Positions 125-55,179 of a stretch of 64,000 nucleotides of DNA are shown here, one piece after another. Every line of letters begins with the position of its first letter. The first letter of the stretch is position 1. Below the pieces are notes generated by a model, which was given only the letters and a program-made list of their open reading frames with translations, ran no database searches and was not told the origin of the DNA. Source of the DNA: a virus. The stretch spans positions 1 to 64,000 of IMG/VR virus record IMGVR_UViG_3300022843_000001. One strand, given 5' to 3'. Position numbers and translations under genes: made by a program.

Positions 125-3100
125 TTTGTCTGTCCTTCTAAGGTTAAAATACGGGCTTCTAAATCATCGTTCTTGGTTGATAGTTCTTGTAACGCTTTGA
201 CAAGCACTGGGATTAATGCTGTATCCACCATGCGAAGTTTGTCTTCGTCTTCATTGTCTACAATGACGGGGCTATCACCCTCAAGCGCCAATACGTCTTG
301 AGCTTTGAAGCCATAGCGCACACCGCCATTGGTTTCTTCAGAGTCCCGCGCAGTGCGGAACTGATACGCCGTGGGCTGCAACGCTTTGACAAACTCAAGG
401 CCGTGGGGAACAGGCGCGAAGTTAATCTTGTCCCGCGCATCTGACACAACTGTCCATGCCACTTGAATGTAGGCATTGGTAACACCCGTCGAACCCATGC
501 AAAAACGGTTATTTTCGGTCGTTGGGTTGAAGACTGGTGCGTTAGAGCCTGCTGAATTGCGCGGATTGATTGCTGTGTTTCCGCTACCCGTGGTGTTGCT
601 ATAGAGCGCGTCTGCTCCACTAGCTGTGTTGTCACTACCCGTGGTGTTGTTATAAAGGGATGTGTATCCACTAGCTGTGTTATTAACGCCTGTCGTGTTG
701 CTATAAAGTGCGCTTCGTCCACTAGCCGTATTATTAACGCCCGTGGTGTTGCTATAGAGCGCGTTAAGTCCACTAGCTGTGTTGCTATGACCTGTGGTGT
801 TGTTATAGAGTGCGTTTACTCCACTAGCTGTGTTGCTATATCCAGTAGTGTTGTTATAAAGGGATGTGTATCCACTAGCTGTGTTATTATATCCTGTCGT
901 GTTGCTATAAAGTGCGCTTTGTCCACTAGCCACGTTATTAACGCCAGTAGTGTTGCTAAAGAGTGCGTTTTGTCCACTAGCTGTGTTGTTACTACCAGTG
1001 GTGTTGCTATAGAGTGCGCTTCGTCCACTAGCTGTGTTGCCACTACCAGTAGTGTTGTTATAGAGTGCGTTTACTCCACAGGCCGCGTTGTTATATCCAG
1101 TAGTGTTTAGATAAAGCGCCCGAAACCCACTAGCAATGTTGTTATATCCTGTGGTGTTGCTATAGAGTGCGTCCCTCCCACTAGCCGTGTTGCTAGTACC
1201 AGTAGTGTTGCTATAAAGTGCGTTTTGTCCACTAGCCGTGTTATTAGCGGCCGTGGTGTTGCTATAGAGTGCGTTCAACCCGATGGCGGTGTTGCTACTA
1301 CCCGTGGTGTTGCTATGGAGCGATTGTAACCCACTAGCCGTGTTATTATTACCAGTAGTGTTGGTTTGAAGTGCGTCTTGTCCACTAGCCGTGTTATTAA
1401 CGCCTGTAGTGTTGCTATAAAGTGCGCTTTTTCCACTTGCAATGTTGTTATATCCAGTCGTGTTGCTATAAAGTGCCTCTGTTCCACTAGCTGTGTTGCT
1501 ATATCCAGTGGTGTTGCTATAGAGTGCGCTTTGTCCACTAGCTGTGTTGTTATATCCAGTCGTGTTGCTATAAAGTGCCTCTGCTCCACTAGCTGTGTTG
1601 CTATATCCAGTGGTGTTGCTATAGAGTGCGCTTTGTCCACTAGCTGTATTATTATATCCTGTCGTGTTAGAACCTATTGAACTTGTTCCGACAGCAGTAT
1701 TATGAAAACCAGTTGTGGTGGCATATAAAGATTGGAAGCCTATAGCTACGTTATTATTTGAGGTGGTGCCCGAGGCTAACGCACTTTCCCCTATTGCAGT
1801 ATTTTGTGTTCCAGTAGTAAGAAGTCCACCAGATTCACTGCCAATAAAAGTGTTTCTTGCACCAGTAGTAATAGCATCACCTGCGTTATAACCAACTGCC
1901 GTGTTGTTACTACCTGTAGTGTTGGTATAGAGCGCCCGAAACCCACTTGCTGTGTTATTATCGCCTGTGGTAATCGCAGTTCCTGCACCATCTCCAATCA
2001 GCGTGTTATTATTACCACCTGCAACGATTGAGTCGCCAGCGCCAGCGCCTGCCACAAAATTGCCTGTTCCTGCTGTGACCGATGATATTCCTGCCGTTGT
2101 AATGTTGCCTGCCATAGTACCACCAGCTTTAGGAAGTGCTGCATTGGCTACATTAGATACAAGCGTATCTTTAGCATCAATCTGAGCTTGGGTGTAAGTA
2201 TCTGAAGATTCAAATACACTATAGGATGAAACTTCAAATACATCATTTAATGTAGCACCAGTAGTTAATGTAATACTATCAGCAGCAGCGTCACTAGTAA
2301 AGTCAGTTGTCTTTGATAATTTTACACCATTTAAAAACACCTGAATAGAGGTCGAGCTTGAAAATTGTAACAGCAAAGAATTGTCATCGTTTCCTACAAA
2401 AACCGTTTGTCCGGCCGTGGCAGTGTAGACAAAATTTTGCACAAGCCCAGGTGTTGCACTTGGGAATGGAAGTACTGTACTAACCAAAGCAAGTATTTCT
2501 ACACCATTTATTGGTGGGTTGTTAAACGTAACTGAAGTATCCGAGCTAAGTATATATTCAGATCGAGGTCTTAGCACACCATCATAATAAATAGTCAGTG
2601 CATCATTAACACCACCATAATTAAACCCTGCCGCAGGTGCAAAGTCAGATGCAGAAAATGTAGTCTTAACACCATTACCGGTCGCTATAAATTCTGTTGA
2701 AGTTGTCTGCGCGGAAAGTATAACAACTTCAAATACTTCTATTTTAATAGAACCAGAAGCAGGAGGAGATGTAAAAGTGACTACATCCGAAGACGTTTCT
2801 GTAAAATCTGAATCATCTGCCCGCATACCGTTAACATATATCTTAATGGTGCGAGTAGCAATATTATAATTGAAATTAGAAGGAGTAAAGTCAGACGCAG
2901 AAAATACGGTCTTTACGCCGTCACTTGTTGCTATAAACTCTTTTCCGCCATAACCTGCGACTTGATTTTGCCATGATGCACTAGTTCCATCAATCGCGGT
3001 AAGTACCTGATTTGCGGTAGGTGCAGCAGAAGCAGATATAACAACCGCGGTTGTTGCCGTTGTGAGTGCGTCTATTCCACCTGTTGCTGTGACTGCGCCA

Positions 3101-3594
3101 CTAATCGTTGTGTCGCCATTGCCGTTGACTGTAAACTTGTTAGCACCATCACCAGCCTGAATAGCCAACACCAAATCCGTATCTAAAGCACTGCCTCGTC
3201 TTATAGAAAGAGCACCCTTCGAAGCATTAGTTGTTATTTCGGGTGATGCTGTGGATGCCTCATATGTATCTTGTAAATTACCCGCTGTGTCTTCTGACTG
3301 CCATCCATTAGTTGCGTCATATGTTAATACTTGGCCTTCCGTAGGAGACATAGATGTAAAAACATCCGTCAGACTCGCTAAAGTAGAAGTAGGTGGCGGC
3401 AGTATGGAAGCTGGTAGAAGATTGTCGGCACCTATTATAGGGATGCTTCCATCAACCGTTCCTGTATCTAATGCCGCGGCAGTACCAACAGCAGACGTCT
3501 CGACTTTGTCAGTGTTTAGATTGACAAAATTGGCATCGATCTCATTGTTAGTTAATAATGCCCCTTTACCGCTTCTGGTAGTTATAGTAGACAT
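121..3594 (-). CDS. Tail fibre with 17-aa beta-helix/YadA-like repeats and C-terminal intramolecular chaperone (peptidase S74)
   Basis: N-term TITTRSGKGALLTNNEIDANFVNLN typical of T4-like virion proteins; 27 NTASGxxALYSNTTG repeats; C-term SDARDK...GFKAQDV...LIPVLVKALQEL + coiled coil. Confidence 0.9.
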   Translation of the reverse strand: MSTITTRSGKGALLTNNEIDANFVNLNTDKVETSAVGTAAALDTGTVDGSIPIIGADNLLPASILPPPTSTLASLTDVFTSMSPTEGQVLTYDATNGWQSEDTAGNLQDTYEASTASPEITTNASKGALSIRRGSALDTDLVLAIQAGDGANKFTVNGNGDTTISGAVTATGGIDALTTATTAVVISASAAPTANQVLTAIDGTSASWQNQVAGYGGKEFIATSDGVKTVFSASDFTPSNFNYNIATRTIKIYVNGMRADDSDFTETSSDVVTFTSPPASGSIKIEVFEVVILSAQTTSTEFIATGNGVKTTFSASDFAPAAGFNYGGVNDALTIYYDGVLRPRSEYILSSDTSVTFNNPPINGVEILALVSTVLPFPSATPGLVQNFVYTATAGQTVFVGNDDNSLLLQFSSSTSIQVFLNGVKLSKTTDFTSDAAADSITLTTGATLNDVFEVSSYSVFESSDTYTQAQIDAKDTLVSNVANAALPKAGGTMAGNITTAGISSVTAGTGNFVAGAGAGDSIVAGGNNNTLIGDGAGTAITTGDNNTASGFRALYTNTTGSNNTAVGYNAGDAITTGARNTFIGSESGGLLTTGTQNTAIGESALASGTTSNNNVAIGFQSLYATTTGFHNTAVGTSSIGSNTTGYNNTASGQSALYSNTTGYSNTASGAEALYSNTTGYNNTASGQSALYSNTTGYSNTASGTEALYSNTTGYNNIASGKSALYSNTTGVNNTASGQDALQTNTTGNNNTASGLQSLHSNTTGSSNTAIGLNALYSNTTAANNTASGQNALYSNTTGTSNTASGRDALYSNTTGYNNIASGFRALYLNTTGYNNAACGVNALYNNTTGSGNTASGRSALYSNTTGSNNTASGQNALFSNTTGVNNVASGQSALYSNTTGYNNTASGYTSLYNNTTGYSNTASGVNALYNNTTGHSNTASGLNALYSNTTGVNNTASGRSALYSNTTGVNNTASGYTSLYNNTTGSDNTASGADALYSNTTGSGNTAINPRNSAGSNAPVFNPTTENNRFCMGSTGVTNAYIQVAWTVVSDARDKINFAPVPHGLEFVKALQPTAYQFRTARDSEETNGGVRYGFKAQDVLALEGDSPVIVDNEDEDKLRMVDTALIPVLVKALQELSTKNDDLEARILTLEGQTK
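586..1962 (-). repeat. 51-bp (17-aa) tandem repeat array, 27 units
   Basis: Units read directly from translation; 102-bp near-exact duplication at 1451/1553. Confidence 0.9.
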
Positions 3595-3600
3595 AGTTTA

Positions 3601-4047
3601 TTATGTAATTGTAATTTTCCAAGTAATCGCCAAGCTGTCGTCCGAACCTTTGTTGACAACACTAAAAACAGTTCTACATGCCATAGTACCACCAGAAGCG
3701 GCATTAAAAATTGCGGCTTCTACAATAGCACCAGTAGAAACACCAGGGCCGAAAGTTGCGGTATATGTAACTTCTGCATCAGAAACTGCATCAGCAAGAG
3801 CAACTCGTGATCCTGTTTCTGTTGACAAAGTACTTTGCCCGACAACAGCAACAGTGTTGTCAGTACCTAACGCCATATGAGACATAATTGGAGTACTGCC
3901 TTGATCATTGATCATACGAGAAGCAATAAATTCCTTACCTGTAGTTACAACTAAATTGTTGACAGTTTTGTCTGCCTTGATCTTTCCATCAGGACCAGTT
4001 AAAACCATTTGTAAACGGCCTGTCGCGATAATGTTTTCTTTAATCAT
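3601..4047 (-). CDS. Virion structural protein (tail/baseplate-associated)
   Basis: NLVVTTGKEFIASRM...MALGT...EAAIFNAASGGTM motif pattern common in phage tail proteins; late promoter upstream. Confidence 0.7.
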   Translation of the reverse strand: MIKENIIATGRLQMVLTGPDGKIKADKTVNNLVVTTGKEFIASRMINDQGSTPIMSHMALGTDNTVAVVGQSTLSTETGSRVALADAVSDAEVTYTATFGPGVSTGAIVEAAIFNAASGGTMACRTVFSVVNKGSDDSLAITWKITIT

Positions 4048-4091
4048 TTTTAAAATCTCTTTGGTTGGTTGGTTTGTTTGTTATGTAAGGT

Positions 4092-4099
4092 TATTTATA
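4092..4099 (-). promoter_or_regulatory. T4-type late promoter TATAAATA
   Basis: Exact box upstream of 4047 ORF. Confidence 0.7.
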
Positions 4100-5965
4100 T
4101 CAAAACGATCTTGTGTCTCCAACATAATCTTCGGCAAAATAATCACTTGCATAACCTTGATTATGTAAAGAACCTTCGTCTGAAGCAATCACATCTTCAA
4201 TATAAAGATTACCGGCTGTAATAGATACATTTTCAAATGCTGCCGTTGAATCTGAAAATTCTGTTGTAAATGATATAGATAAATTATCCGAGACAGGTTC
4301 GTCTTCATTTAAAGCAGTGGCATAATCCAAGAATAAAGTGTCTGTGGTGTTTGGTGTTTCGACAAACGATCTATTCGCGGCAAAAACGAATGTAGGTGTA
4401 TCAGCAACCGAAGAGTCGTCCAAAAATGATTTGCCAATATTCCAATTAAACTCTTCTGTTGGTTGCGAGGAATCGATTATTGATCTGTATGCATTAAATG
4501 TGACGTTAAAATTCTCGGATGCGTTCACACTTTCATTCGATGTTTTGTAATATTCCCAAGTAATGCCGTCAGGTACACCTATCAAATCTTCGACGCTAGC
4601 TTCGTCTTCTATTGATTTAAATATATCAAATTTCTGATCATCACTTGAAGAAAAAATGTCGGTAAATTGCTTTGTAGGCATCATGGACAATTGATCACTT
4701 GAAGAAAAAATGTCGGTAAATTGCTTTGTAGGCATCATGGACAATTGATCACTTGAAGAAAAAATGTCGGTAAATTGCTTTGTAGGCATCATGGACAATT
4801 GATCATCACTTGAAGAAAAAGAATCTGTTATTGATTTAAATATATCAAATTTCTGATCATCAGTTGAAGAAAAAATGTCGGTAAATTGCTTTGTAGGCAT
4901 CATGGACAATTGATCATCAGTTGTATAAAAAGAATCTGTTATTGATTTAAATATATCAAATTTCTGATCATCAGTTGTAGAAAAAGAATCTGTTATTGAT
5001 TTAAATATATCAAATTTCTGATCATCAGTTGAAGAAAAAATGTCGGTAAATTGCTTTGTAGGCATCATGGACAATTGATCACTTGAAGAAAAAGAATCTG
5101 TAAATGTTGTCCCATACGCCAAGGAAAGAAAATCCTCTAATCCATAACTATCATTAAACTCTCTTCTGAAATCTACAACCCGTTCAAAAACTTCAGAAGA
5201 AATTAAAGTGTCGCTTAATGCTTTTATAGAATCTACAATTATCAAATCAGATAAAGATTGGTAATCAATAAAAGGTTTTGTGGAAAGTATATGAACTACG
5301 CTTGCCGTAGAAACGTTGTCTATAAACGCAGTTTTATCTAAATATTTTGATATTAATTCTTCGGGTGCAATATAATCATTAAATATTCTATTAAAATCAA
5401 TTGACAGAGCAATTAAATCTTCGTTTGTTGTAAAATCCACAACAGGTTTGCTTAACAGAAGATCTGTGTTGTCCAACGATTCTAATGCGTCATTAAGATC
5501 TCTATTGAAATCCGCAACCAGAGTTATGTTGTCCGTGGCTTGTTGCGTCTCCGCAACAGACTTGATAAATTCAATTAATGATGAATCTTCGTTATTTGTC
5601 GAATCATTAAAGGACATGTTAAATGATAACGATAGAAGATCTGCCAAAGATACGGTATCAACTGGGGCCGACAATGACACATCAAATGATATAAACTCGG
5701 CCGTTAATATTGTTTCGTTAGGAGATCTTGCAAAGTCCGATATGTAACTAAATTCATCGGTAGGAGAACTTAATATATCTGTAAAGGCCTTTGTTGGTGT
5801 AAGACTAAATTTTTCATTAACAAATGTATCTTCGTCGATCAGATGAAAAGATCTTAGTACAGTACCGAGTACTGCAACACCCATAAAAGGTGTAAGATAA
5901 TCTACCTTTGATTTACCTACAAAGTTATCATAGGTGATCTTAATATCTGAAAACTTTTTAGTCAT
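4100..5965 (-). CDS. Acidic Ser/Asp/Thr-rich repeat virion protein
   Basis: Long ORF in tail module; ~18-aa periodic D/S/F repeats. Confidence 0.7.
   Translation of the reverse strand: MTKKFSDIKITYDNFVGKSKVDYLTPFMGVAVLGTVLRSFHLIDEDTFVNEKFSLTPTKAFTDILSSPTDEFSYISDFARSPNETILTAEFISFDVSLSAPVDTVSLADLLSLSFNMSFNDSTNNEDSSLIEFIKSVAETQQATDNITLVADFNRDLNDALESLDNTDLLLSKPVVDFTTNEDLIALSIDFNRIFNDYIAPEELISKYLDKTAFIDNVSTASVVHILSTKPFIDYQSLSDLIIVDSIKALSDTLISSEVFERVVDFRREFNDSYGLEDFLSLAYGTTFTDSFSSSDQLSMMPTKQFTDIFSSTDDQKFDIFKSITDSFSTTDDQKFDIFKSITDSFYTTDDQLSMMPTKQFTDIFSSTDDQKFDIFKSITDSFSSSDDQLSMMPTKQFTDIFSSSDQLSMMPTKQFTDIFSSSDQLSMMPTKQFTDIFSSSDDQKFDIFKSIEDEASVEDLIGVPDGITWEYYKTSNESVNASENFNVTFNAYRSIIDSSQPTEEFNWNIGKSFLDDSSVADTPTFVFAANRSFVETPNTTDTLFLDYATALNEDEPVSDNLSISFTTEFSDSTAAFENVSITAGNLYIEDVIASDEGSLHNQGYASDYFAEDYVGDTRSF
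4612..5100 (-). repeat. Interleaved near-identical 54-57-bp repeats (DQLSMMPTKQFTDIFSSS x5, DQKFDIFKSITDSF x4)
   Basis: DNA-level near identity visible in sequence. Confidence 0.9.
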
Positions 5966-48427: not shown

Positions 48428-48664
48428 TTATTTTGGTGCTTCGTGAGACCAACCCATATCTTTCATTTTTAGATGATCTGCTTTAACCTTTGCCATTTTG
48501 CTTTTTCCTGTCTTAGGGTCATACATCATGTGCGGCTCAAAATCATCTTCTTTGACACATTTATTAACCATCTTACCTTTGTTCTTTCCAGTACCGTCCT
48601 GCTTACCGTCTTTCTTATAGCCGTCCCAGCAATCTTGTTCTCTAAAAAATTTAAATGTTTTCAT
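48428..48664 (-). CDS. Small putative internal head protein
   Basis: MKTFKFFRE N-terminus; CWDGYKK..KCVKE motif. Confidence 0.65.
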   Translation of the reverse strand: MKTFKFFREQDCWDGYKKDGKQDGTGKNKGKMVNKCVKEDDFEPHMMYDPKTGKSKMAKVKADHLKMKDMGWSHEAPK

Positions 48665-48665
48665 A

Positions 48666-49046
48666 TCATACCTTAATTTTAGGGTCGTTAGACTTAAAGT
48701 CTTTCTTTCTCATGATAGTCTTTGTGACCATCTCTTTATCTTTTGGACGTGCGTTTATGACAAACGGTATGTTTACATCGTTTGCAACATCATTAATAAC
48801 TGCCTCGAAATTGTCTGGAAAGTCTGCCATAGATTTTCCCATTTTTTTCCAAGCTTTTCTGAACAGACTTATTAACTCTGCAGCAGTAATGGGTTTTCCA
48901 TTTCTCTCATCATTCATTCTGTCGGCGAAATGTCGTGTAAAAGATACATCGATGTTTGCCTTTTTAAACAACTTGTCGGCAAACTTCTCTACCTGATTAA
49001 GTTGATCTTGAGTTATTTCTTCGTTAAAGTTTTTAAAGGATTTCAT
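48666..49046 (-). CDS. Putative internal head protein
   Basis: MKSFKNFNEE N-terminus; late promoter 49052-49059; FTRHFADRMND..VTKTIMRKKDF. Confidence 0.7.
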   Translation of the reverse strand: MKSFKNFNEEITQDQLNQVEKFADKLFKKANIDVSFTRHFADRMNDERNGKPITAAELISLFRKAWKKMGKSMADFPDNFEAVINDVANDVNIPFVINARPKDKEMVTKTIMRKKDFKSNDPKIKV

Positions 49047-52746: not shown

Positions 52747-52775
52747 ATTATATCATTAATAATGGTACTTGTCAA
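52747..52775 (-). promoter_or_regulatory. Early sigma70 promoter
   Basis: TTGACA-17-TATAAT plus shared leader. Confidence 0.85.
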
Positions 52776-52799
52776 CACTTATTTTTAATTAATTAGGTG

Positions 52800-52828
52800 T
52801 TGACAAGTGAATAGAAGTGTGTTATAAT
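52800..52828 (+). promoter_or_regulatory. Plus-strand sigma70 promoter with extended -10, antisense to IntC-kinase gene
   Basis: TTGACA-17-TGnTATAAT; no plus-strand ORF downstream. Confidence 0.75.
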
Positions 52829-52860: not shown

Positions 52861-53793
52861 CTAATCGAACTTCCTTGCCATAAGGGTATCAATTGGTATA
52901 TTTGCAGATATCCAACCCCACAATTGAGTTTTAATATCAATCATTTTGTTTACGGGTTTGGATGGCATTTTGAGGGTCAGGTATTTAAAATCTTTTATTG
53001 TACCAAATATATCACCTTTCTGCTTCTTGCCACCGAAAGGTTTATCTAATCCTGTACGACCACGCGCTTGGGTACCACGAATAGAGTCTGTAGGTTTATC
53101 ACCATTTGATCTATAATCTTTTCCATCAGAAGTCTTGAAGAATATAGTATTCTTTTGGTTGTTTAATACAACGTGAATGCCGCCATTCAGACCAACGGGT
53201 ATCTTATTTTTATCTACAATATCCCACATAGTCTTGGCCGCGCCTTCATGAGTTTCGAACATAATATCTGAAGGTACTACTCTTTCTCTGGATGCATTCT
53301 GTTTAATCGCTATCTTATAATCTGTTAATATCCAAACCAAATGTACATTGTTAGGATTATATCCCGCATCATACATTCTAGGTAAAGTTTTATCAATTTG
53401 CTTTAGATCTTTTAGAGTAACGTCAAACATGATGTTTGGCAATATTTCTTTATTCTGCATGGCGCCAATCATATTAGACAGAGTTTTATCTTTGATTCCT
53501 TTTTCGTCTACAAACTTGTGTAGTTTAAAAACGTCTTCAGGTTTCTTTAAATTGAGGCCACGTATCTCTGGATATTTCTTTTTTAACTTATCGATTTTAA
53601 GGAACGTCATTTTCCATTCATCAACATCACGAACTTTATAATCCTGAGAGTTAATAAAATTCTTTGCGGCAAACCCTTTACCAGAGTTATGAACTAACAT
53701 ATTTTGCTTTGTGACATGATAGTTGTGATTGCCCGATATGCTCAGATCGTGAACTACTTCCTTAGTTATTTCACTTCTTCTTATTAATTTCAT
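52861..53793 (-). CDS. Split-intein C-precursor: IntC (36 aa, ends VHN) + C-extein of a zeta-toxin/AAA_33-like P-loop kinase
   Basis: MKLIRRSEITKEVVHDLSISGNHNYHVTKQNMLVHN|SGKGFAAK; Ser +1 at 53685-53683. Confidence 0.9.
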   Translation of the reverse strand: MKLIRRSEITKEVVHDLSISGNHNYHVTKQNMLVHNSGKGFAAKNFINSQDYKVRDVDEWKMTFLKIDKLKKKYPEIRGLNLKKPEDVFKLHKFVDEKGIKDKTLSNMIGAMQNKEILPNIMFDVTLKDLKQIDKTLPRMYDAGYNPNNVHLVWILTDYKIAIKQNASRERVVPSDIMFETHEGAAKTMWDIVDKNKIPVGLNGGIHVVLNNQKNTIFFKTSDGKDYRSNGDKPTDSIRGTQARGRTGLDKPFGGKKQKGDIFGTIKDFKYLTLKMPSKPVNKMIDIKTQLWGWISANIPIDTLMARKFD

Positions 53794-54006
53794 CTGTTTT
53801 TTCCAATTTCTCGGTAAGTTCGGTAAGGGTCAATTCTGGAAAATGACCTCGGTCTTTTAAATATTCAGCCTTTTCTAAAAATCTTAACCATTTTTTGTGT
53901 CGTCATTCATACTCGATGGGCCTTGCCTGTGTCTATAACAACATTTCCCAATCGTATATCTTCCACCATCATTGCTTTATCTATATTTAGTTCCATTTCC
54001 GTCATA

Positions 54007-54020
54007 TATTTATATTTATA
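54007..54020 (-). promoter_or_regulatory. Two overlapping late promoter boxes upstream of the IntC gene
   Basis: TATAAATATAAATA. Confidence 0.7.
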
Positions 54021-54113
54021 TTGCGGAAATTGTGATTCACATGCTAAACGTTTGTCTAAATTTATTCCAAAATCAACTAAACCTTTTGGCAGGTGGTGTT
54101 GGTATTGCGTTTA

Positions 54114-54494
54114 TTATGCTATTGGTATATCCTTTGCTTGTACCCATTCACCTTCAATAAAGAACTCGTGATTTGCAGTGCACTTAACTATTTCGCCATT
54201 ATCGAACTCTAATTCTAACATAGGCTCTGGATTAGCTTCGAAAGAGTGGGTGTCTTCAACTTCTTTAAGTTCTTCGTTTCCTGTATCTTCATTTGTAGTC
54301 CAAACCAAATCACCTTCTTTTATATCTGAAATTGGTGTATGGCCCGATTCAGTATGTACCAGAGTATCTGCCGAGAAACAACCGGCGCCACCGGCAAGTA
54401 TAACAATCTGACCGTATCGAGCGCCTTTGTTGATTAGCAGAAGTTTTTCTTGGAGTTCTTGTTGCTCCACTATATGATTTTTAAAGGATAACAT
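54114..54494 (-). CDS. Split-intein N-precursor: 38-aa N-extein + IntN (88 aa)
   Basis: ..IVILAGGAG|CFSADTLVHT (block A), CTANHEF (block B TxxH); Cys1 at 54380-54378. Confidence 0.92.
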   Translation of the reverse strand: MLSFKNHIVEQQELQEKLLLINKGARYGQIVILAGGAGCFSADTLVHTESGHTPISDIKEGDLVWTTNEDTGNEELKEVEDTHSFEANPEPMLELEFDNGEIVKCTANHEFFIEGEWVQAKDIPIA

Positions 54495-54495
54495 A

Positions 54496-54978
54496 TTAAT
54501 TTACATACATGTTTAGTTCGAATGTTTTGCTTTTGCTTTCTCTGTTGTAGATTTGTATGTGTAGTTTTTTCTTTGATTCCTTGCCATTTTTATCAACAAG
54601 AGTTAAGGTGTATCTATTTGTCTTTCCACGGCCTGGCTTTGCAGGACCTGTTGCAACATCATTCCATCGAGATTCATCTTCGATAGCAAAGCCGGTTTTC
54701 TTTAATTCCTTTTCGACTTCTGTAAATGCATTGCTCATAGAGTCATGATATATCTCATAGGAAGTCTTGGCTTCTTTCAAAAGATCTTTTGCATCAACAC
54801 TCATAGAACCGTTTTTGACACTTACATTAATTGTGCCGTTAGGGTTAACCATATCTACAACACCTTTCAGTGTTTTTGGAGACAAAGAGTCGTATTTATT
54901 TGCATTTTTTACAGTTACAACATCACCCTTGCTAAATTTGGACTTTGTTGCTTCGTCAAACTCTTTAAATGATTTCAT
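54496..54978 (-). CDS. Putative internal head protein
   Basis: MKSFKEFDE N-terminus; late promoter 55013-55020. Confidence 0.65.
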   Translation of the reverse strand: MKSFKEFDEATKSKFSKGDVVTVKNANKYDSLSPKTLKGVVDMVNPNGTINVSVKNGSMSVDAKDLLKEAKTSYEIYHDSMSNAFTEVEKELKKTGFAIEDESRWNDVATGPAKPGRGKTNRYTLTLVDKNGKESKKKLHIQIYNRESKSKTFELNMYVN

Positions 54979-55012: not shown

Positions 55013-55020
55013 TATTTATA
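55013..55020 (-). promoter_or_regulatory. Late promoter TATAAATA
   Basis: Exact box upstream of 54978 and IntN genes. Confidence 0.75.
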
Positions 55021-55179
55021 ACAAAAAGGCGCCGCGCCCTTAATTTATTATGTACCACAGCGACCAGCAGGCCACGACTTGAGACCTTTTTGGCCGTGGT
55101 TCCCGATATGATCAGGTCCTTTTTGACAATTTGACCGCCAGTGCGGTATAACTTTGCTTCTGCTTTTATAATTATTCAT

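Follow-up and report, generated by a model that had tools for sequence, protein, structure and literature searches.

A predicted split intein in the P-loop of a phage zeta-toxin-like kinase, with the apparent remains of an endonuclease gene between its halves

The split inteins gp41-1, NrdJ-1 and IMPDH-1 are fast trans-splicing elements that come from metagenomes. The fractured-gene model (Dassa, London, Stoddard, Schueler-Furman and Pietrokovski, 2009, PMC2677866) includes a step III in which the endonuclease has been lost and the two halves of the broken gene lie next to each other, a state observed once, in gp41-7. In the endonuclease-bearing loci described there, TATAAATA boxes accompany a leader hairpin, and in gp41-7 a leader hairpin lies upstream of the C-half (PMC2677866). 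Inteins in P-loops are common, for example at DnaB site b, MCM site a and RFC-S site a (Novikova et al., 2016, PMC4760082). Here we analyze a kinase gene broken in its P-loop, at positions 52,861 to 54,494 (minus strand) of a 64,000-nucleotide stretch of viral DNA (hereafter the window). It takes up the initial 64 kb of IMG/VR record IMGVR_UViG_3300022843_000001, a complete virus genome of 198,785 bp with direct terminal repeats and a G+C content of 36%; to judge from the enrichment of TATAAATA boxes on its coding strand and from a gp21-type prohead protease, the phage is T4-like. Its zeta-toxin-like kinase is encoded as two genes, each of which bears one intein half at the junction. We consider it likely that a mini-intein entered this gene, that an endonuclease gene then split the intein and was itself deleted, and that the two halves are joined by trans-splicing.

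The N-half is an open reading frame (ORF) of 126 amino acids (54494..54114, minus strand). Its first 38 codons (54381..54494) encode the N-extein, which starts with MLSFKNHIVE, contains strand beta-1 (QIVIL) and ends ..QIVILAGGAG, the AGGAG being the first half of the Walker A loop. The next 88 codons (54117..54380) encode the N-terminal intein half (IntN) with Cys1 (codon TGT, 54380-54378, minus strand), block A CFSADTLV and block B CTANH, which holds the T..H pair; IntN ends ..KDIPIA, followed by a double stop TAA TAA (stop of the ORF at 54114-54116). The C-half (53793..52861, minus strand, 310 amino acids) has its own ATG at 53793 and begins with 36 codons (53686..53793) for the C-terminal intein half (IntC), which contains VVHDL, ..VVHDLSISGNHNY.. 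and GNHNY (block F, D..NHNY) and ends MLVHN (block G, VHN). SGKGFAAKNF follows: the C-extein (52861..53685, 274 codons plus stop) opens with Ser+1 (codon TCT, 53685-53683, minus strand), continues with GKGF, the second half of Walker A, and supplies the remainder of the zeta-toxin-like phosphotransferase. The ORFs, the extein and intein lengths and blocks A, B, F and G given in a first-pass annotation of this DNA agree with these coordinates and sequences.

The presumed Hint domain was borne out by a PT-HINT profile match of the N-half (E 8e-9, 36.3 bits) that exceeds the cut-off of 27.7. The Intein_splicing match of the same protein (E 2.7e-8, 34.2 bits) stops 1.6 bits short of its cut-off (35.8), and IntC matches the last 25 positions of that profile only weakly (E 0.078; 4.8e-4 in a second search). 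P0068, a relative with a contiguous intein, clears the cut-offs of both profiles. IntN had been described as acidic and IntC as basic; the net charge is indeed -18 for IntN, while at +2 IntC is only mildly basic. By its motifs, the split intein of 88 + 36 amino acids is a canonical class-1 intein (Cys1 and Ser+1) placed between the G and the S of the P-loop. Size, Cys1, Ser+1 and phage origin are features that we take it to share with gp41-1, NrdJ-1 and IMPDH-1. No close sequence relation to these three was detected in the comparison made, that of IntN with its solved-structure matches: its closest matches there are to a bacterial intein-like domain (2lwy, 2.8e-5) and to inteins of DnaB/DnaE, and up to E 10 no gp41-named chain is among them. 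In sequence, the intein thus stands closer to the DnaB/DnaE type and to the bacterial intein-like domain than to any solved gp41-named chain; with the gp41-1/NrdJ-1/IMPDH-1 class it agrees in size and nucleophiles.

A search with the C-half returned 658 homologs. An intact one, P0001 (312 amino acids, 87% identical over the exteins), is uninterrupted and reads ..LAGGAGSGKGFAAKNF.., with GGAGSGKGF across the junction; P0002 and about 50 other homologs are likewise uninterrupted (..LAGGAGSGKGF..). The earlier prediction that joining the exteins rebuilds a Walker A loop, GGAG-SGKG, is thus matched by a contiguous GGAGSGKGF at this very point in intact homologs, in which G35, G36, S39, G40, K41, G42 and F43 are invariant at the site. 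At the DNA level, the syntenic locus of P0001 (L005) presents the empty site GCA GGT / AGT GGA AAA. The codons for AGGAG directly before the intein in the window (54381-54395, minus strand) form a near-palindrome, GCCGGTGGCGCCGGT; L005 has GCTGGTGGTGCAGGT at its AGGAG codons, and its junction Ser codon is AGT, not TCT.

Exactly the same point is occupied by a contiguous mini-intein of 119-133 amino acids in P0048, P0067, P0068, P0069, P0131 and others. The window intein, at 88 + 36 = 124 amino acids, matches these in size, and its break, which lies between blocks B and F, aligns with their short linker. Additional split C-halves (P0005, P0018, P0065, P0079 and P0084) and split N-halves (P0122-P0126) were found, and an exhaustive search with the N-half added at least 8 further clusters at 50% identity, with N-halves of 123-165 amino acids ending GG(A/S/G)(G/A)/C(F/L). 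The same intein clade is also present in AAA_33 kinases, in terminase large subunits and in N-halves of S-adenosylmethionine (SAM) synthetase. Close IntN relatives stand at the end of P0155, P0210, P0226, P0230 and P0234, reading ..GGGAF/CF..; P0155, the only one of these that was scanned, is a SAM synthetase that breaks off at IntN, an indication that phage genes for this enzyme, too, harbor split inteins. Other close IntN relatives sit in AAA_33 kinases (GGPG/C) and in terminase P-loops. Among GenBank phages, blastn with the 2-kb locus gave no match, and tblastn with the C-extein gave distant relatives only (identity at most 38%), mostly annotated as hypothetical.

An intein tree was built from 88 IntN columns; as 16 of its 29 inner branches are unresolved, it was used only for two well-supported pairs of contiguous (cis) and split forms. 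The window falls inside a mostly split clade (93/91). Contiguous P0068 pairs with split P0123 (98/87), and a further pair of one split and one contiguous form is found among the AAA_33 hosts (99/99). Because contiguous forms pair with split forms in this tree, the cis and split states appear to have interchanged more than once.

The host protein had been named a zeta-toxin-like kinase, and the intact homolog supports this: P0001 matches Pfam Zeta_toxin (PF06414) with E 1.7e-9 and 37.8 bits against a cut-off of 22.3, and PezT (4e-5) and zeta toxin are the first matches of its AlphaFold model. The C-half of the window alone scores 17.8 bits, under the same cut-off, because the P-loop is absent from it. 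The P0001 model has a mean predicted local distance difference test (pLDDT) value of 72 and a disordered insert at 215-270. Besides PezT and zeta toxin, its fold matches include the PFKFB kinase domain, the Clostridium and T4 polynucleotide kinases and AvrRxo1; the template modelling scores (TM-scores) of all these matches are 0.3-0.65. By fold, zeta/PezT could not be told apart from polynucleotide kinases, PFKFB or AvrRxo1. When the intact homolog was compared by sequence with solved structures, nothing meaningful was found. Invariant in the kinase family are RDVDE after the P-loop, NxxFDxT, RxRVV and a His. RDVDE presumably occupies the position where kinases of this type have their catalytic Asp. 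The canonical Walker A pattern G-x4-G-K-[ST] does not apply: the family invariant is GSGKGF, with Gly after Lys, and we take this GKG ending to resemble adenylate-kinase-type loops. The protein is like the zeta toxin/PezT uridine diphosphate (UDP)-N-acetylglucosamine kinases (PF06414; 2p5t, 3q8x, 1gvn) in the Pfam match of P0001, in the first matches of its model and in RDVDE after the P-loop; it is unlike them in that its Walker A ends GKG rather than GK[ST], that the TM-scores are low (0.40-0.51) and that polynucleotide kinases and AvrRxo1 match nearly as well. Atlas clusters of the family are all viral and carry the automatic name 'putative UDP-N-acetylglucosamine kinase'. The substrate may be a UDP-sugar, nicotinamide adenine dinucleotide or a polynucleotide 5'-OH.

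The two halves are separated by 320 bp (53794-54113). The first-pass annotation had called this an endonuclease-free gap; the length is correct and no working endonuclease gene is present, but the gap is no clean spacer. Read in frame after the double stop of the N-half, it yields 59 residues, 25 of which (42%) are identical to the C terminus of the endonuclease encoded in the related locus L008 (E 9e-14). These residues align with 14 members of the endonuclease family from just behind an (I/V)EVK motif to the end; since the alignment begins just after this motif, the catalytic core and the start of the gene have been deleted. The remnant (53907..54089, minus strand, stop at 53907-53909) thus preserves the final ~60 codons of what was a free-standing PD-(D/E)xK-type homing-endonuclease gene, and a 32-amino-acid ORF at 54005-53907 is part of it. 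On its 5' side, the first ~30 nucleotides of the gap (approximately 54085..54113, minus strand) resemble by eye the leader that lies between N-half and endonuclease gene in relatives (L007/L008), and we read them as the 5' edge of the former endonuclease cassette. A weak match of the first codons of the gap to the GKP.PKG motif of the endonuclease (E 0.87) was set aside as chance, this stretch matching by eye the leader DNA of the relatives. The last 113 nucleotides (53794..53906, minus strand) are a spacer that supplies the start codon of the C-half; they bear a weak by-eye likeness to the L001 spacer, and one of their frames weakly resembles the repeated DNA-binding module of the endonuclease (19 amino acids, 37%). 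The leader hairpins of the relatives are strong (z -4.0, -2.5 and -7.0), and two of these leaders contain TATAAATA; in the window the leader hairpin is not significant (z -0.9) and has decayed. On these alignments, the gap is what is left of a free-standing endonuclease gene, of which related loci retain whole copies.

In those split relatives an ORF of 352-381 amino acids lies between the halves, and its stop overlaps or abuts the C-half start. The order N-half / endonuclease / C-half is 2490-2891 / 2946-4004 / 4001-4963 in L002 and 3001-3375 / 3444-4556 / 4559 onward in L008; in a third split relative the three proteins have 126 / 381 / 297 amino acids. The endonuclease ORF contains 2-4 repeated CVEYW..KGY..EEA modules and a C-terminal PDF..(I/V)EVK nuclease motif. 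Its match among solved structures is T7 endonuclease I (2pfj, E 2e-4), with weak matches to Phage_endo_I and the endonuclease family phrog_29037, and some of its 19 homologs (P0276-P0294) have TnsA-like and NUMOD3 Pfam matches. The L008 endonuclease folded with a mean pLDDT of 86. Sequence tests found no GIY-YIG or Vsr-like motifs in the relatives' endonuclease, and NCBIfam and PADLOC gave no match for kinase or endonuclease. By these sequence matches, it is a T7-endonuclease-I/TnsA-like PD-(D/E)xK protein.

The locus is like the fractured genes of Dassa et al. in three features: a phage gene broken within an intein where endonucleases insert, two halves that are neighbors on the same strand, and an acidic IntN (PMC2677866). 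Its relatives share with the Dassa loci TATAAATA together with a leader hairpin, and an endonuclease ORF that overlaps the C-half start (PMC2677866). A free-standing endonuclease gene between the halves is absent from the window, as it is from gp41-7 (PMC2677866), and present in L002, L008 and the third split relative. Compared in this way, the window locus corresponds to step III, the endonuclease-loss stage, of the 2009 model (PMC2677866). It differs from the described cases in three respects: the host is a zeta-toxin-family kinase rather than a helicase, ribonucleotide reductase, IMPDH, DnaE, ligase or terminase; the relatives' endonuclease is of PD-(D/E)xK type with CVEYW..KGY..EEA repeats; and a recognizable 3' endonuclease remnant survives, which documents the deletion directly (PMC2677866). 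Like the DnaB, MCM and RFC-S inteins, the window intein is inserted within the ATP-binding P-loop of a P-loop nucleoside triphosphatase; those are mostly contiguous and reside in cellular replication proteins, whereas this one is split and belongs to a phage protein that resembles a small-molecule or polynucleotide kinase (PMC4760082). The suggestion of a new host family is partly supported. An incomplete literature search brought up no report of an intein in a zeta-toxin-family phage protein and none that names this family as an intein host, but P-loop inteins are common (PMC4760082), and adjacent halves lacking an endonuclease were already known from gp41-7.

We propose the following course of events. 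A class-1 mini-intein would first have invaded the phosphotransferase gene within its Walker A loop, separating G38 from S39. A free-standing PD-(D/E)xK-type homing-endonuclease gene would then have split the intein at the place where endonucleases usually insert, which lies between blocks B and F. Later, in this phage, ~0.9 kb of the endonuclease gene, its start and catalytic core included, would have been deleted, leaving behind the 5' edge, the last ~60 codons and the spacer with the start codon of the second half. One late transcript from the TATAAATA box at 55020 probably yields both halves, with a possible contribution to C-half expression from another box within the remnant. Docking of IntC with the strongly acidic IntN should restore the Hint fold and lead to trans-splicing, which would proceed by a Cys1 N-S acyl shift, attack by Ser+1, cyclization of the terminal Asn and an O-N shift. 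The predicted product is a 312-amino-acid kinase with a contiguous GGAGSGKGF loop.

Such a history could also have ended in a dead gene, one no longer expressed or useful after fracture and endonuclease loss and heading towards deletion. The ribosome-binding site of the C-half is weak, the remnant shows that deletions occur here, close relatives manage without the intein and the gene family is accessory. The sequence of the two genes makes this improbable. Both ORFs are open and late-promoter boxes are present. The window extein retains all 41 residues that are invariant among 50 intact homologs, and when the two extein parts were concatenated and compared with two intact relatives in a relative-rate count, unique changes showed no excess in the window (10 vs 17, 8 vs 9 and 12 vs 13). 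No second kinase copy or intact paralog was found in the 198,785-bp genome. The same state is also found in many samples: the locus was read in 23 contigs, all from other samples or assemblies, and seven representative loci that were aligned are 100% identical over the stretch covered (2.1 kb in five, shorter in two). Because these independent loci are identical, an assembly artefact or a frameshifted contiguous intein was ruled out. The same identity leaves the population uninformative on selection, and the suggestion that the fracture is fixed and domesticated is not supported.

For a fractured gene that is still in use, the question is what the intein halves do. Across seven split N-halves (48-69% identical), Cys1 and the Thr and His of block B are invariant, and seven split C-halves keep D16, N22-H23-N24-Y25, V34-H35-N36 and Ser+1, the last of which corresponds to S39 of GGAGSGKG, a residue that does not vary in the host family. 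A complex model of N-half and C-half reached a score of 0.76 (runs 0.75-0.77), and the best of 3 controls had 0.00; the mark applied is reached by 58 of 80 solved complexes and by 2 of 110 mismatched pairs. The runs share at least 69% of contacts, and the pLDDT of the partner is at least 66. The modelled interface spans IntN and IntC and places extein strand 29-33 between C-half strands 120-123 and 149-153, as expected for strand beta-1 of a P-loop fold. The pass may reflect likeness to solved split inteins, and it speaks to association, not to splicing. Association is all that would be needed if the intein halves acted as a non-covalent clasp, docking to hold the kinase halves together with no splicing. 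We regard this as quite improbable: all residues for the four splicing steps are present and invariant among diverged split relatives, and a 124-amino-acid Hint domain left in the P-loop would sit on the ATP site.

Expression of the two genes was examined from their promoter-like boxes. A terminator-like GC hairpin followed by a T-run (55025..55041, minus strand) marks the start of the unit that contains both halves. Directly downstream of it lies TATAAATA, a T4-type late-promoter-like box (55013..55020, minus strand), 35 nucleotides ahead of the ATG of a 160-amino-acid ORF that has no assigned function (54496..54978, minus strand; N terminus MKSFKEFDE, capsid-targeting-like). The stop of this ORF is one base ahead of the ATG of the N-half, and the two are therefore probably co-transcribed. 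The box occurs again as two overlapping copies, TATAAATATAAATA (54007..54020, minus strand), inside the YKYKY codons of the remnant and 214 nucleotides ahead of the ATG of the C-half. In the window, TATAAATA is enriched (20 found vs 8.7 expected), with 18 on the minus, coding strand. L008 has TTATAAATT at the place homologous to the second pair, and L002 has TATAAATA 105 nucleotides ahead of its C-half start, within the 3' end of the endonuclease gene. It is plausible that the 3' end of the endonuclease gene carries the promoter of the C-half and was kept for that reason. The halves had been assigned separate late promoters at 55013 and 54007; the boxes are at these positions, but separate transcription does not follow from them. 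Co-transcription of both halves would be the simpler reading, because the boxes share one late type, the N-half follows immediately on the upstream ORF and no terminator-like site was found between the two halves. That the fracture is kept so that kinase activity needs both halves or conditional splicing, for example to restrain a toxic kinase until late, or is gated by co-expression as first suggested, is very improbable. In its favor, there are two promoter-like boxes, zeta-family kinases (PezT, zeta) can be toxic to bacteria and the capsid-targeting-like N terminus is on the N-half alone. Against it, both boxes are of one late type with no terminator between the halves, homologs 87% identical do without any intein, and relatives that still have the endonuclease, together with the remnant, show the fracture to be the work of a selfish element.

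Several observations weigh against the proposed history of intein invasion, endonuclease loss and trans-splicing. Contiguous P0068 is nested among split forms (98/87, on 88 columns), and the tree does not fix the order of events. All aligned copies being identical, they give no measure of selection within the phage. IntC, at +2, is only weakly basic, a smaller opposition of charge than natural split inteins elsewhere are described to have. Finally, the C-half lacks a good Shine-Dalgarno sequence as well as the translational coupling to the endonuclease ORF that the relatives have.

The kinase family shares a second feature, at its N terminus, where the consensus is MKSFKEFLTE (P0004, MKSFKEFIAE; window, MLSFKNHIVE). 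The T4 capsid targeting sequence is MKTYQEFIAE (PMC8442874), where targeting is influenced by positions 4 and 7, and cleavage by positions 8 and 10 (PMC9026906). A targeting sequence of this type would be expected as ~10 N-terminal residues like MKTYQEFIAE, with an aromatic residue at 4 and 7 and I/L-x-E at 8-10. In the genome, 6 of 609 ORF starts show the pattern, compared with 2 of 1827 internal Met (p 0.004). The six ORFs begin M-[KL]-[ST]-F/Y-x-x-aromatic-..-E and all are on the minus strand, at 48428-48664, 48666-49046, 54496-54978 and 54114-54494 of the window and at 78860-79075 and 79916-80320 of the genome; several lie a short way downstream of TATAAATA boxes. A prohead protease of gp21 type is encoded in the genome (Peptidase_S77, E 2.3e-41, genome 119172-119609), and the six may form a set of head-packaged, injected proteins. 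By analogy with T4, the kinase could be one of them: entry into the prohead would be limited to the trans-spliced product, which would then be cleaved after Glu10 and reach the next host as a zeta-like kinase. We regard this as a possibility, although a doubtful one. If true, the targeting signal would reside on the 126-amino-acid N-half and the enzyme body on the C-half, and the kinase would be the first virion cargo assembled by a split intein.

A second fractured gene is present in the same genome at 71874-74878 (L011, L012). It encodes the large subunit of ribonucleotide reductase (NrdA), with an intein at SNL/CTEI; its N-part (73724-74878) and C-part (71874-72899) are separated by a whole 252-amino-acid ORF with an HNH motif (72896-73654), which overlaps the C-part start. 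The NrdA and kinase inteins are only 32% identical in IntN and 41% in IntC, and the two are therefore probably orthogonal. Between the stop of the kinase C-half and an HD-domain gene, two perfect consensus sigma-70 promoters (TTGACA, 17 nucleotides, TATAAT, with TG before each) stand back to back on opposite strands at 52747-52828; the plus-strand one is antisense into the kinase C-half.

A single host family thus shows the empty site, the contiguous mini-intein, the split intein with a whole endonuclease gene and the split intein with a truncated remnant, the last of these contributed by the window. This makes the origin model of split inteins testable with real sequences, including whether the 3' end of an endonuclease gene is kept as promoter and start codon. 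The compact 88/36-amino-acid Cys1/Ser+1 split intein, with its native junction GAG/SGK, is a candidate protein-ligation tool. For the biology of these phages, the finding widens the hosts of split inteins from enzymes of replication and nucleotide synthesis to an accessory, possibly virion-borne kinase.

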